In this document: positions 23,146 to 61,318 of the stretch, piece by piece
How the letters are laid out: each line of letters opens with the position of its first letter
Numbering within the stretch: the stretch's first letter is position 1
Notes under the pieces: generated by a model
The model's input: the letters and a program-made list of their open reading frames with translations, nothing else
Database searches by the model: none
What the model was told of the DNA's origin: nothing
From: a virus
Reading direction: 5' to 3' (one strand)
Length of the DNA stretch: 64,000 nt
Virus record (IMG/VR): IMGVR_UViG_3300049988_000263
Program-made: the position numbers and the translations under genes

Positions 23146-23826
23146 ATGTCCAACGTTACCATTCAGTCGCTGAAGACGCTCGCAAAGTCGCTGCGTTCCG
23201 ACACGGTCTCTCACTCCCAAGCGCTCGAAATCGTCGCCAAGCAGAACGGATTCAAAGATTGGAACGCCGCTGTGGCGATGTCCCCGCCGGAGCCGAGCGC
23301 GGCGAGCTTCGACAGCTTCGTTCGGCGGTTTGACGGGATCGCACCAAAGTATGATGTGCTTCGCCCGATTCCTTTTGCCTCGAACCGACCTGAGTACGAC
23401 GAAGTGGTGGCCGAGATTGATGCGGTCTTCCGGGATATGCAGGATGCCGGACGATCCTGGCAGGAGATCGCTGCCTGCATGCGATATGTGGGGTACCATC
23501 TTAGCCTACCCCTGCTCGTTCGGAGTCCAAACTTGGCTCGGTTCACTTTGAGGCACCGCGATCACATCATGAGTGTGAATGTGGAGGAGAACTTCCTGCG
23601 GTTCTTCCCCCATCTGGCCAAGCCCGCTCTGACCGTCCTGTCTTACGGGGTCCTCGTTCAGACTGTACAGAGCATCGTCGCGGAGTTTCCTGGCATCAAG
23701 CACGAAGAGGTCATCGCCAAAATCGACGAGCGCCATCCCAACTCGGATTACAGGCAGCAGTCCGTCGTCCAAATCATGCTCAGGGGGCCGGGCTGGAAGA
23801 ACGAGCCGGGTTGGAAAAAATCGTAG
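23146..23826 (+). CDS. Hypothetical protein with a Glyoxalase_8-like N-terminal helical domain
   Basis: LKTLAKSLR...SHSQALEIVAKQNGFKDWN. Confidence 0.55.
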   Translation: MSNVTIQSLKTLAKSLRSDTVSHSQALEIVAKQNGFKDWNAAVAMSPPEPSAASFDSFVRRFDGIAPKYDVLRPIPFASNRPEYDEVVAEIDAVFRDMQDAGRSWQEIAACMRYVGYHLSLPLLVRSPNLARFTLRHRDHIMSVNVEENFLRFFPHLAKPALTVLSYGVLVQTVQSIVAEFPGIKHEEVIAKIDERHPNSDYRQQSVVQIMLRGPGWKNEPGWKKS

Positions 23827-23833
23827 AACGAAG

Positions 23834-23864
23834 TTGACACCTCGGTTAAGGTCTGAGATAAATA
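23834..23864 (+). promoter_or_regulatory. Promoter of the His leader
   Basis: TTGACA-N17-GATAAATA. Confidence 0.75.
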
Positions 23865-23869
23865 AAGTC

Positions 23870-23920
23870 ATGAACACGCATTCGCATCATCATGTCTCGA
23901 AGGGGTCACACCCGTCGTAA
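23870..23920 (+). CDS. Attenuator leader peptide, His-rich (MNTHSHHHVSKGSHPS)
   Basis: 5 His in 16 aa, three in tandem; terminator and tRNA-His follow directly. Confidence 0.85.
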   Translation: MNTHSHHHVSKGSHPS

Positions 23921-23951
23921 ACGCCGCAAGGCGTGATGCGAATCTGTGTGC

Positions 23952-23982
23952 AACCCCGGTAAGCTATGCTTCCGGGGTTTTT
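23952..23982 (+). terminator. Attenuator terminator 2
   Basis: AACCCCGG-T-AAGC-TAT-GCTT-CCGGGGTT-TTT; 23946-23957 can pair instead with 23902-23911. Confidence 0.85.
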
Positions 23983-24003
23983 CTTTGGTCTTTGGACCAA
24001 TAT

Positions 24004-24079
24004 GGTGGCCGTAGTTCAGTGGTAGAACGTCGCCCTGTGACGGCGAATGTCGCCGGTTCGAATCCGGTCGGCCACCCCA
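24004..24079 (+). tRNA. tRNA-His(GUG) with G-1:C73
   Basis: Cloverleaf, loop CTGTGAC, encoded G-1, C73 and CCA. Confidence 0.95.
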
Positions 24080-24098
24080 AAGTTTTCCGAGGATTCCC

Positions 24099-24650
24099 AT
24101 GAGAATTTCGACCGAGCAGGCGCATGCGTTGTTCGACTGCTTCGAAGACTCTGGGCTTCTCATCGATCCGGACGGGTCCTGGCGCAAGAACTTCCACATG
24201 GAGGTCTCTGTGCTCGGGCATAAGCGCTGGAGCCAAGGCCCGTGGACGCTGATGAACGAGTGGGGCAAGCTGAAGCCTCCTCGGCTGTCGATGGCACCGC
24301 TCGGCGCGTTGTCCACGCCGGAACGCGAGATCGCCGAGGCCGACCGGCTGGAGCGGGTCAACGCGGAGATCGCCCGGATCATGTCGAACGAGCCCGTGCC
24401 GGACCCGGACTTCGCCAAGAGCTTCCCCCGGATCACCCAGGCCGAGATGGAAGCGATGGACGAGGCCCAATGGGAAGCGTTCTTCGACAAAGTCGATGAG
24501 ACCGGCCCCTACATCATCACGAGCCCTCACCGCAAAGACGTGGTGATACTCTCGATCAAGCAATTCGCACGTCTGACAGGAGAAAAACTATGCTGCGAGG
24601 AACTCGAATCATCGACGGAGCCCAGGCCCGACTCTTCACCGACACCATAG
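24099..24650 (+). CDS. Hypothetical protein, possible C-terminal Phd/YefM-like domain
   Basis: FFDKVDETGPYIITSPHRKDVVILSIKQFARL. Confidence 0.55.
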   Translation: MRISTEQAHALFDCFEDSGLLIDPDGSWRKNFHMEVSVLGHKRWSQGPWTLMNEWGKLKPPRLSMAPLGALSTPEREIAEADRLERVNAEIARIMSNEPVPDPDFAKSFPRITQAEMEAMDEAQWEAFFDKVDETGPYIITSPHRKDVVILSIKQFARLTGEKLCCEELESSTEPRPDSSPTP

Positions 24651-25199
24651 AGACGATCCGGAGGTGTCTTCATCGAGGCTGAGTTCGAGGAAATCATCGT
24701 CCCCTCGATTTGGGAGGCGGAGACTTTTCTGGACAAGGTCGGCGACGAAAATCGCCGGATGATGTGGACGTTTCAGGACAAGGGCGAGCGTAACGTCTGC
24801 CTGATCCCGGAGGTTACCGGACTGTTGCAGGAGACGTGGCGGGAGGATTGGTCGAAGCGCTCCAAAACCCGCAACGTCTTCTACGTCCAGCGCTGCTACC
24901 GGTACGAGCGCCCCCAGGCGGGTCGATACCGGGAGTTCACCCAGCTTGGTATTGAGATGCTGGGGAGCCAGGACAGCACCAGGGCAAAGGCGCTCCTACG
25001 GGATTGCCTTGACCGGTTCGACGTGGAATATTCGTTCAACGAATCTGCCAAGCGCGGCCTCTCCTACTACGTGGAGGAGGGGTTCGAGGCGAGCGTGGCC
25101 AAGCTCGGCGCGCAGAAGCAGATCGCGGGTGGAGGGGCCTACGCCGAAGGTGTAGGCTGGGCCATTGGAATCGATCGATTGGTCCTGGCGAGGCAGTAA
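24590..25199 (+). CDS. hisS: Minimal histidyl-tRNA synthetase-like catalytic core with a +1 frame break near 24662
   Basis: AGGAG SD; MLRGTRII...ETIRR then, in the +1 frame, VFIEAEFEEIIVPSIWE; motif 2 YRYERPQAGRYREFTQLGIE; motif 3 GWAIGIDRL; no anticodon-binding domain. Confidence 0.8.
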
Positions 25200-25753
25200 T
25201 GGCTAAGATTGACAGCCACACCGATTTAGATGAGCTTCGGCGGCGTCAGAAGGGTGATCGCGATGCTGAGAGAAATCAGGAGGCCGAGGCGATCTACAGG
25301 AAAGACCTGGGAAACCTCGCCCTTCCGATCCTGAGTATTTTTTCAATTCTCTTCTTCATCATTGATTTTAAGGAGATTCCGTCTTCATCGGGTATCGGAC
25401 TGCTGTTGCTCGCCTCGTGTATCACGTACATTATAGGGTTTGTGCTGGGCACGGCGATCACCATAGGGGCCGTCTGCTTTATCGTCTTGAAGAATCGTTG
25501 GCGCCGACGCCAGGATGATCGAATCCTTAATCTCCATGAAGATGAGCGTGAACATCTGGTCCACTATGCGTACGGTGGAGATCGTCCTCTGGTCTGCCGG
25601 TACATCGTCTTGCGGGACGAGGTGCTGGATTGGGCGAAACAATCCGGAGTCAAGATGGCCGTGCTCACAACGTATCGGAAACAAGGGGACATCCCACTGG
25701 TTTGGTTCAGAAATCCCGAACACGCTGTGGCATTCAAGATGCGTTGGTATTAG
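25199..25753 (+). CDS. TM segments fused to an FKxRW-family domain
   Basis: Two hydrophobic stretches; ends FRNPEHAVAFKMRWY. Confidence 0.75.
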   Translation: MAKIDSHTDLDELRRRQKGDRDAERNQEAEAIYRKDLGNLALPILSIFSILFFIIDFKEIPSSSGIGLLLLASCITYIIGFVLGTAITIGAVCFIVLKNRWRRRQDDRILNLHEDEREHLVHYAYGGDRPLVCRYIVLRDEVLDWAKQSGVKMAVLTTYRKQGDIPLVWFRNPEHAVAFKMRWY

Positions 25754-25762
25754 ATAGAGTTT

Positions 25763-25837
25763 GGGGGTGTAGCTAAGTGGTAAAGCCGGTCGCTCATAAC
25801 GGCCTCATCGCGTGTTCGATTCACGCCACCCCTACCA
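25763..25837 (+). tRNA. tRNA(CAU): Met or Ile2
   Basis: Cloverleaf, loop CTCATAA, ACCA end. Confidence 0.9.
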
Positions 25838-25871
25838 CTAACCATGAATCAAATCTATACTTGCTCCCGCT

Positions 25872-26291
25872 TTGATTCTCGTGAAAGATGATTCGATCAT
25901 CCTATCGGGGTATTCTATGCGCATCGCCATTCTGACGCTTCTCATGTTCACGACCCCGGTGGTGGCCGAGCCAGACTTCTCCGGGCGGTGGGCGGAAAAG
26001 GAAGCCGACTGCATCGGTCAACCCGACATACCCCCGGTGGAGATCACCGCATCCACCTACAAGGGTTACGAACAGTTCTGCGTATTCGAGCGTGTCGATG
26101 CGACCTTCGTCAAGGGGTCGTTCGAACCCGTATGGTGGACCGTCCGGATGCGCTGCAAGGGCGAAGGGGTGACCGAGACGTCAACCTCGGAGTTCCTGCT
26201 TAATCGCGACGGCAACTCTCTTTTCGAGACACCCATTCACAATGGCGTTAGAGGGGATACGATTGCCCGTAACCGTTGCCCCTGGGATTAG
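25872..26291 (+). CDS. Secreted hypothetical protein (start probably MRIAIL)
   Basis: Signal peptide; G.W....DC and Cys pattern. Confidence 0.55.
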   Translation: MILVKDDSIILSGYSMRIAILTLLMFTTPVVAEPDFSGRWAEKEADCIGQPDIPPVEITASTYKGYEQFCVFERVDATFVKGSFEPVWWTVRMRCKGEGVTETSTSEFLLNRDGNSLFETPIHNGVRGDTIARNRCPWD

Positions 26292-60700: not shown

Positions 60701-61318
60701 ATGCGAATTGCAGTCTTGGCCATTGGAATGTGCTTGCTGAGCGCACCGCTGTGTGCTCAAACAGCTTCTAACTCGACGTCATCGTCGGTCTCGAACTCGC
60801 AATCGGGGGCCAGCATCGTGAACAACGCCCCGGCGGTCATCACCTCCAGGGGTGTGAATGAGATCACGGCAAGCGCCTTCGCTCCCGGCCTGACCGCAGC
60901 GGGCATCAATTCGTGTGCCGGTTCCAACTCGGCAGGCGTCGGCGGAACGGGCTTCAACTTCGGCATCGGTGGTACCTACGAGATGGACGAGTGCACGGCG
61001 CGTGCCAACGCTGCCGCACTCGCCGGTCTCGGCCAGGGTCTGGCGGCCCTCGAAAGCCTCTGCCAGAGCCCGCGCATGCGTCAGGCCCTGAACGCCTCCG
61101 GCACCGTCTGCCCGTCGCAGCGCGCCGAGTATCTGGCCGCCCAGCAGCGCGCGAACGAATCCGGGCAACTCTACTACGCCACCGAACTCGCTCAACCGGA
61201 GCCGGTGGTGGTTCGTCCCACCCGCGCGGGTTCCCGTGCGGCCCGCCGCGTGGCGGTCGATGCCCAGGCTTCGAACTCCGGCGCCTCCGTCGCGCAACAG
61301 GCGGCCAGCCGCCGTTAA
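60701..61318 (+). CDS. Secreted protein, Ser/Ala-rich with a Cys motif
   Basis: Signal peptide MRIAVLAIGMCLLSAPLCA; NSC...DEC...LCQ...VC. Confidence 0.65.
   Translation: MRIAVLAIGMCLLSAPLCAQTASNSTSSSVSNSQSGASIVNNAPAVITSRGVNEITASAFAPGLTAAGINSCAGSNSAGVGGTGFNFGIGGTYEMDECTARANAAALAGLGQGLAALESLCQSPRMRQALNASGTVCPSQRAEYLAAQQRANESGQLYYATELAQPEPVVVRPTRAGSRAARRVAVDAQASNSGASVAQQAASRR

Follow-up and report, generated by a model that had tools for sequence, protein, structure and literature searches.

A conserved candidate +1 frameshift site at a histidine codon in the gene for a core-only phage histidyl-tRNA synthetase

Introduction

The gene for release factor 2 (RF2), prfB, carries an autoregulatory +1 frameshift site that consists of a Shine-Dalgarno (SD)-like AGGGGG, a spacer of 3 nt, and CUU UGA C (Atkins et al. 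2016, PMC5009743). In yeast, the +1 frameshift of Ty1 and ABP140 takes place at CUU-AGG-C and is of the hungry-codon type (PMC5009743). The same 2016 review of recoding knew of no hungry-codon frameshifting that yields a functional trans-frame protein (PMC5009743). Here, we describe a locus that resembles both systems and that lies in a stretch of 64,000 nt from the virus record IMGVR_UViG_3300049988_000263, which we call the window (position 1 being its first letter). The source is a large uncultured phage from leaf metagenomes. Between 24004 and 25199, the window encodes a tRNA-His and a histidyl-tRNA synthetase (HisRS) of only 202 amino acids, termed mini-HisRS, whose reading frame is broken after codon 27. 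We found a conserved and repeatedly evolved cassette at this break, and we consider it probable that the cassette is a +1 frameshift site gated by a histidine codon.

The mini-HisRS gene shares with prfB an internal SD-like element, a 3-nt spacer, a CUU that would slip to UUN, and an early end of the 0 frame when no shift takes place. In both genes the A-site codon would be slow and its decoding would depend on the gene's own product, which in the phage case is a putative dependence. The A site differs in that it holds a sense codon for histidine (CAU or CAC) and not a stop codon, and the sensed molecule would be an aminoacyl-tRNA rather than a protein factor. With Ty1 and ABP140, the phage site has in common a heptamer with a P-site CUU, a slow A-site sense codon, and a readily decoded +1 codon (PMC5009743). 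The yeast sites differ in being eukaryotic and dependent on a rare tRNA-Arg, and they have neither an SD stimulator nor feedback on their own product.

On the side of the enzyme, two HisRS/tRNA-His systems are known that do not cross-charge (Yuan et al. 2011, PMC3064791). The canonical HisRS needs the G-1 of its tRNA, and for the enzyme of C. crescentus, E. coli tRNA-His is a 250-fold poorer substrate than the cognate tRNA-His, with the single change U72C costing 91-fold (PMC3064791). The Sinorhizobium phage Phosso and several relatives of the window's locus resemble this pair of systems in that they would bring both types into one cell. The canonical-type enzyme described here is different in being core-only and virus-borne.

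A conserved +1 shift site in the mini-HisRS gene

All features described below lie on the plus strand unless stated otherwise. The first part of the mini-HisRS gene is ORF1 (24590..24682), which is preceded by an AGGAG that we read as a ribosome-binding site (24578..24582), 7 nt 5' of the ATG at 24590. Residues 1 to 27 (MLRGTR...RRCL) are encoded in this 0 frame and are followed, if no shift occurs, by His-Arg-Gly and the stop TGA at 24680-24682, giving the translation MLRGTR...CLHRG*. Residues 28 to 202 are encoded in the +1 frame (24672..25199), which is open from 24651 to 25199. This part contains motif 1, the motif 2 loop RYERPQAGRYREF, KRGLSYY, GGGAY, and motif 3, and the joined two-frame product has 202 amino acids. 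The shift site itself (24668..24673) consists of CUU for Leu27 in the P site (24668-24670) and CAU for His in the 0-frame A site (24671-24673). Skipping of C 24671 brings the +1 codon AUC (24672-24674) into frame. An internal SD-like GGAGGTG (24660..24666) stands just upstream, its GGAGG core ending 3 nt before the shift codon. The site thus has the NUU shift codon and the SD-like element at about 3 nt that mark prfB-type sites, and it departs from the strict prfB type by the His codon in place of a 0-frame stop.

A sequence-only reading of this stretch had described a HisRS of about 200 amino acids that has motifs 1 to 3 and lacks the insertion and anticodon-binding domains, next to a tRNA-His with encoded G-1 and C73, and had treated the frame break as something to correct. 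Both descriptions hold up, the former by Pfam, NCBIfam, and phmmer and the latter by ARAGORN and our reading of the sequence. The frame break does not call for correction; instead, it matches a conserved +1 recoding signal.

We gathered related loci (given L numbers) from IMG/VR, metagenomes, and assemblies and arrived at 71 distinct loci that need a +1 shift and 27 that are in frame. The motif [C/G]TT-CA[T/C] was present in 71 of 71 shifted loci, with CTT in 55 and GTT in 16, CAT in 59 and CAC in 12, and never CAA or CAG. A G-rich SD-like run occupies positions -8 to -4, 3 nt before the NTT codon, in every shifted locus. The calculated duplex with the anti-SD had a median of -9.5 kcal/mol in the 71 shifted loci; for the 27 in-frame homologues the mean at the corresponding position was -0.56, and pairing of equal strength was found at only 2% of the other positions in the same genes. 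A 0-frame stop lies 0 to 5 codons past the His codon in 70 of the 71. Along with the use of GUU for CUU in 16 loci, this more distant stop is a further difference from prfB. The N-terminal MLRGTR segment is kept in the 0 frame in all relatives. The shifted loci come from contigs of many metagenomes and include that of the cultured phage Phosso (469 kb, host S. meliloti). There, as in the window, a canonical tRNA-His is followed by a small ORF and by an MLRGTR frame that runs into a stop, and what is annotated as "histidyl-tRNA synthetase" is the +1-frame continuation.

Several loci constrain where the shift would have to occur. In L006, a +1-frame TAG ends just before the TTC, and the stretch shared by the two frames is just 14 nt long in L007, L015, L018, and L020. 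L029 and L088 have their cassette in the middle of the core, and the invariant VCLIPE is restored only if CTT is read, C is skipped, and ATC is read. Taken together, these constraints pin the shift position. In 42 of 71 loci, the first ATG, GTG, or TTG of the +1 frame comes 7 to 50 codons past the junction, with none before motif 1, and residues 1 to 24, encoded in the 0 frame, belong to the modelled dimer interface (see below). Thus, a functional product would have to be a trans-frame protein.

We tried and rejected several other explanations of the break. Sequencing or assembly error would not leave 71 loci in need of the same +1 shift, and four independent runs contain substitutions but no indel across the shift site. 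Gene decay is excluded by the retention of both halves as protein and by the sole frame break of each locus being the shift site. Internal initiation of the +1 part was rejected on the 42 of 71 loci that have no start codon there and on the mid-core cassette of L029. There is no homopolymer at GTCTTCATC for transcriptional slippage, and the normal 7-nt anticodon loop of the tRNA-His rules against four-base decoding. Judged by comparison of these loci, the gene has no error at the break but carries a conserved signal for recoding.

Gains of the cassette and selection on the histidine codon

Counting from the RGTR motif, the cassette is found at codon 24 in 65 loci, at codon 15/16 in 4, and at codon 68 in 2. 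A maximum-likelihood tree places in-frame sisters next to both the codon-16 clade and the codon-68 pair, and it also has a few in-frame genes inside the codon-24 clade. According to this tree, the cassette was gained at least three times, and several losses are needed as well.

The residue after the junction is I, L, H, D, V, M, E, K, or R in unshifted homologues. In shifted genes it is only Ile or Thr, from codons that yield CAU or CAC in the 0 frame. A variant strain from an independent run carries CAC GGA CGC in place of CAT CGA GGC, followed by TGA; the 0-frame His is kept, while the +1-frame residues change from Ile-Glu to Thr-Asp. These substitution patterns indicate that the His codon at the A site is under selection.

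Proposed mechanism

In the mechanism that we propose, peptidyl-tRNA-Leu on CUU would slip +1 onto UUC, and reading would resume at AUC. We infer that tRNA-Leu(GAG) could re-pair from CUU to UUC through G-U, A-U, and G-C pairs. As in prfB of RF2, the slip is probably promoted by the SD-like GGAGG that lies 3 nt upstream. With ample His-tRNA-His, CAU would be read and translation would terminate three codons on. When His-tRNA-His is scarce, the empty A site would permit the slip, and the synthetase would be made. This arrangement would amount to negative feedback by the product of the enzyme's own reaction, with the same logic as in RF2. The preference for the wobble-read CAU (59 of 71) would fit a slow codon.

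The mini-HisRS enzyme

The joined product matched the Pfam family tRNA-synt_His at 8e-15. Against NCBIfam, hisS scored 143 bits versus 58 to 68 bits for the hisZ models; the score against the hisS equivalog TIGR00442 (143.4 bits) is below its cut-off of 286.75. Using phmmer against T. thermophilus HisRS (4RDX/1ADJ), residues 2 to 142 aligned with residues 8 to 155, and residues from about 136 to 200 aligned with about 243 to 317 of 421. About 28 mini-HisRS residues take the place of T. thermophilus residues 156 to 242, and the protein ends 6 residues past motif 3. The alignment thus skips the insertion domain of about 85 residues and stops short of the C-terminal anticodon-binding domain, which is missing entirely, as is the insertion domain. 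In 4RDX, the insertion domain comprises Arg172 to Phe228 (PMC4357726). Compared to bacterial class IIa HisRS, then, mini-HisRS is half the size, is without the acceptor-clamping insertion and the anticodon-binding domain, and has a shorter loop before motif 3.

The likeness to HisS lies in the catalytic core. The class II motifs 1 to 3 and the HisRS-specific histidine-binding motifs are present and are invariant in two family alignments. KRGLSYY and GGGAY align with RGLDYY and GGGRY of T. thermophilus, and R155, G156, Y159, Y160, G180-182, and Y184 are invariant. The motif 2 loop, R-x-E-R-P-Q-x-G-R-Y-R as in HisS, is invariant across the mini family in the form R-Y-E-R-P-Q-x-G-R-Y-R-E-F. The corresponding Glu, Arg, and Arg/Arg of the 4RDX complex hold A76 and C74 in place and serve as a clamp on the acceptor stem, and single mutations of insertion-domain contacts cost little (PMC4357726). 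The mini-HisRS loop keeps these residues. We also considered the glutamine of the motif 2 loop as proof of G-1:C73 recognition and dropped it, as the numbering in PMC3937112 is ambiguous and the mini family has Glu after the last Arg.

We examined the fold using an AlphaFold model of an unshifted homologue with 75% identity (pLDDT, the predicted local distance difference test, of 91.6). It shares the catalytic fold of bacterial class IIa HisRS (E. coli 1KMM/1KMN and T. thermophilus 1ADJ/4RDX), with TMq of 0.88 to 0.92 on the E. coli HisRS catalytic domain, and its top Foldseek matches are HisRS. A homodimer modelled through motif 1 gave an ipSAE of 0.82 compared to 0.01 for the best control, a pass that may reflect memory of solved HisRS dimers. 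Among proteins of solved structure, 21 of 30 homodimers and 0 of 23 single chains reach this ipSAE mark. Three runs of the dimer model share at least 95% of contacts, with partner pLDDT of at least 85, and here too memory of solved HisRS dimers is possible. Engineered HisRS fragments, such as the N-terminal catalytic domain of E. coli HisRS and urzymes, are likewise truncated and without the anticodon-binding domain; some activity and acceptor-stem specificity have been reported for them, with activity much reduced. Those are laboratory constructs, whereas mini-HisRS is a natural, widespread, and strongly conserved family that is without the insertion domain as well. We counted 1880 database proteins in this family, mostly of 145 to 215 amino acids, with many on contigs of 250 to 670 kb.

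The conserved residues and the modelled fold suggest that the enzyme is likely active. The core enzyme would most likely activate histidine and charge tRNA-His via the acceptor end alone.

The coding sequence of Phosso (L001, PV764938.1, 3932-4573) is annotated from an internal +1-frame ATG and is therefore minus the 27 N-terminal residues. Many database entries (e.g., P0007 to P0013) have 145 to 195 amino acids owing to the same internal-start truncation. Since gene callers truncate the frame-split gene in this way, the mini-HisRS family is mis-annotated throughout.

The adjacent tRNA-His and its leader

ARAGORN called a tRNA-His(gtg) at 24005-24079, and base 24004 is a G, which we assign as G-1. 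The gene (24004..24079) thus encodes a tRNA-His(GUG) with G-1, G1-C72, C73, an encoded CCA, and a normal anticodon loop. Its acceptor stem, GTGGCCG/CGGCCAC, is paired at 7 of 7 positions, and G-1 opposite C73 together with G1-C72 makes it a tRNA-His of the canonical type. From its end to the start of mini-HisRS there are 510 nt, with one unrelated ORF in between. The nearest tRNA to the mini-HisRS gene is tRNA-His in 14 of 35 related loci, while only 10% of the tRNAs there are His, so the linkage between tRNA-His and the enzyme exceeds chance. A canonical G-1:C73 copy stands no more than 3 kb from the gene in 18 of 44 long shifted loci.

Upstream, at the head of the operon, we read a His-rich leader ORF (23870..23920) of 16 codons, including 5 for His, with the sequence MNTHSHHHVSKGSHPS. 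A terminator-like hairpin at 23952-23979 and a T-run follow it (23952..23986), directly 5' of the tRNA gene. The predicted RNA fold of 23865-24004 has a free energy of -59.8 kcal/mol (z = -5.5), and in it the His-codon stretch of the leader pairs with a downstream segment. A simple promoter and terminator scan of 23700-25900 flagged nothing, though the fold gives a hairpin and a T-run. Comparable His-rich leaders occur 5' of tRNA-His in L141, L138, L139, and L004, and these include relatives whose adjacent tRNA-His is of the host type (see below).

The operon opens with a His-codon leader and a terminator, so that the locus as a whole appears to be built around histidine decoding. Moreover, since the leader and the hairpin with its T-run precede the His-codon shift in one operon, histidine decoding may be sensed twice. 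Taken together, we believe, with somewhat more confidence than doubt, in the following joint reading. The locus would be a histidine-charging module in one operon, comprising the His-rich leader with its terminator, a canonical tRNA-His, and a 202-amino-acid core HisRS; the last would be under an RF2-like +1 frameshift in which a His codon serves as the slow A-site codon and as a gauge of charged tRNA-His.

The tRNA genes of the related loci are more varied than this one. A tRNA-His with G-1 opposite A73, or with C73 and no G at -1, occurs in some related phages (L027, L029, L082, L086, and L088), and because of such mixed forms the acceptor ends of phage tRNA-His exceed the two textbook types. 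The mini-HisRS gene often lies inside dense arrays, with 20 to 29 tRNA genes within 6.5 kb (L007, L015, L018, L020, and others).

Host and orthogonality of the pair

We found a second, host-type tRNA-His (no G-1, G1-U72, A73, G37) in Phosso, L004, L005, L008, L011, L049, L138, and L139. Phosso carries both types, the host-type copy at about 429 kb within the main tRNA cluster and the canonical copy beside mini-HisRS, and its host S. meliloti belongs to the clade without G-1 and with U72/A73. A genome-wide scan with a relaxed pattern located host-type tRNA-His almost only in Rhizobiales, Rhodobacterales, Caulobacterales, and SAR11, with Methylorubrum, Brucella, and Rhizobium as examples. This distribution agrees with the divergent tRNA-His described in the literature for the Rhizobiales-Rhodobacterales-Caulobacterales (RRCH) clade (PMC3937112). 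The sequence-only reading had likewise named an alphaproteobacterial clade whose tRNA-His lacks G-1 and has A73.

Within the window, ARAGORN found a canonical tRNA-His only. In the tree, the window groups with L141, L139, L138, and L004 in one subclade (support 99/75), and three of these four nearest relatives (L139, L138, and L004) have host-type tRNA-His. On that ground, we regard an RRCH host as likely for the window's phage. The RRCH-specific features of tRNA-Tyr (C7, R8) were uninformative as a host marker, with G7/U8 in the window's tRNA-Tyr. Near the mini-HisRS gene of the 204-kb relative L138 (positions 1-20582 of that record), there are genes for a TROVE (Ro60-like) protein, a GatB_N-domain protein, GARS (purD-like), and an HWE-type histidine kinase. 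The HWE kinase family is typical of alphaproteobacteria, and its presence in L138 hints at such a host.

Because the two HisRS/tRNA-His systems do not cross-charge, a canonical phage tRNA-His in an RRCH host would need a canonical-type enzyme supplied by the phage. In such hosts, mini-HisRS and the canonical tRNA would work alongside the host's divergent system and not through it. The sequence-only reading had proposed such an orthogonal pair, and its proposal stands in part. The core HisRS is linked to a G-1:C73 tRNA, Phosso and relatives also have the host-type tRNA, and the systems are non-cross-charging (PMC3064791); the pairing is, however, not universal. The module is best seen as an old and portable histidine-charging unit, whose insulation from the host system in RRCH-infecting phages would be incidental. 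The full combination, a hungry-codon shift stacked on a His-leader attenuator and serving a core-only HisRS/tRNA-His pair insulated from an alphaproteobacterial host system, is a reading that we put forward tentatively and would not yet back as a whole.

A number of observations weigh against the joint reading given above or against parts of it. At the shift site, a GUU in the P site (16 loci) re-pairs on UUC at only two of three positions, and a stop directly after the His codon (26 loci) could itself add to pausing. As for the enzyme, the acceptor clamp of 4RDX includes the insertion domain that mini-HisRS is without (PMC4357726), and the Gly-Gly of the 4RDX G-1 pocket is only half conserved in the mini family (DKGE in the window), so that recognition of G-1 is not assured. 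As for the tRNA, the complete 607-kb genome of L004 and contig L139 have only host-type tRNA-His beside the gene, and a pattern and covariance-model search of the L004 genome found no canonical tRNA-His. Since the covariance model matches all tRNAs, isotypes were assigned with ARAGORN for the best loci alone, which makes the lack of a canonical tRNA-His in the genomes of L004 and L006 provisional. BLAST of tRNA-His against the genomes of five relatives returned only T-arms of other tRNAs, this method being too insensitive. Low-GC huge phages carry the same enzyme family, and for that reason orthogonality need not be the general purpose of the enzyme. Finally, there are leaf bacteria, such as Sphingomonas and Pantoea, with canonical tRNA-His.

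Alternative readings

The alternative that survives best takes the unit as a general booster and not as an orthogonal pair. The host system would be canonical, phage and host components would cross-react freely, and the His-gated frameshift would still tune supply. We consider it unlikely for the window, given that three of its four nearest relatives, in a subclade with support of 99/75, have RRCH-type tRNA-His, that host-type tRNA-His is almost confined to RRCH and SAR11 genomes, and that L138 has a gene for the alphaproteobacterial HWE-type kinase. It would, on the other hand, account for the low-GC huge phages, whose hosts need not be RRCH and which have the enzyme family with a canonical tRNA-His nearby. 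It would also suit a window that holds canonical tRNA-His only and a habitat of leaf and silage, where many residents are canonical.

Mini-HisRS lacks two of the three tRNA-binding modules, and some of its relatives lack a canonical tRNA-His, which raises the question of whether it charges tRNA at all. HisZ, AsnA, and EpmA are class II paralogues without anticodon-binding domains and with noncanonical roles. By analogy, the phage protein could be a HisZ-like regulator, a sensor of histidine or of uncharged tRNA-His, or a ligase that passes activated histidine elsewhere. We hold such a non-charging paralogue to be quite improbable. None of the positions that serve ATP, histidine, or the CCA end varies (PMC4357726), hisS models score far above hisZ, and the degenerate catalytic motifs of HisZ are not seen. 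There is no HisG match among the neighboring ORFs (23146-25753), the gene is tied to tRNA-His genes well above chance, and gating by a His codon suits an enzyme whose output is His-tRNA-His.

Lastly, a fixed low-efficiency throttle or a decaying gene in which the His codon is incidental, or a variant with the shift at the rare Arg codons CGG-AGG-T, is very improbable: the early stop of a short 0-frame ORF would also hold down the amount of enzyme, and AGG is a +1-prone hungry codon in E. coli, but CAY occurs in 71 of 71 loci through at least three independent gains and CAT-to-CAC changes, and never gives way to CAA or CAG; AGG is absent from many cassettes (e.g., CGG GGG TTG GTT CAT and CGG AGC TAT CTT CAT), the +1-frame TAG of L006 lies 3' of the Arg codons, and in L029 a shift upstream of CTT gives CVFIPE and not the invariant VCLIPE; and, against decay, both halves are conserved as protein with one frame break per locus, always at the shift site.

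Implications

In our searches of the literature, neither a phage mini-HisRS nor a HisRS gene with a frameshift was described, and no synthetase was reported to be under frameshift control at its cognate codon. If the frameshift reading is true, the cassette, in 71 loci and with at least three gains, would be a case of functional hungry-codon frameshifting of the kind missing from the 2016 review. It would also be a new form of synthetase regulation, beside T-boxes, attenuators, and operator mimicry. A natural dimeric HisRS of 200 residues would inform the minimum of a class II synthetase for specific charging, and mini-HisRS would be a possible compact part for genetic-code engineering. Likewise, rhizobial phages with both kinds of tRNA-His and the kind of enzyme that the host does not have would be a natural one-cell test of orthogonal translation components.

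Other features of the locus

The ORF between tRNA-His and mini-HisRS (24099..24650) encodes 183 amino acids, and its end overlaps the start of ORF1 by 61 nt. Its C terminus is weakly similar to Phd/YefM antitoxins, at a score of 23.5 bits that stays under the cut-off, and Phosso has no equivalent ORF. We found no PHROGs family match for mini-HisRS or its two neighbors. No near-identical phage turned up among 50,697 phage records when 20 kb of the window was compared with them by Megablast. Variant copies of the locus were present in one silage metagenome run and in one organism-labelled run.

The window carries 16 tRNA genes according to ARAGORN. Among the related loci, ARAGORN also reported a few tRNA-like genes with two-base "anticodons" (L007, 1185-1257; L011, 2276-2358; L032, 5382-5449). 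A second loose match to the cassette, GGGGCGTTGTTCAC, is found on the minus strand of the window at 60818-60831; two matches are within chance, as in 15 of 100 shuffles.

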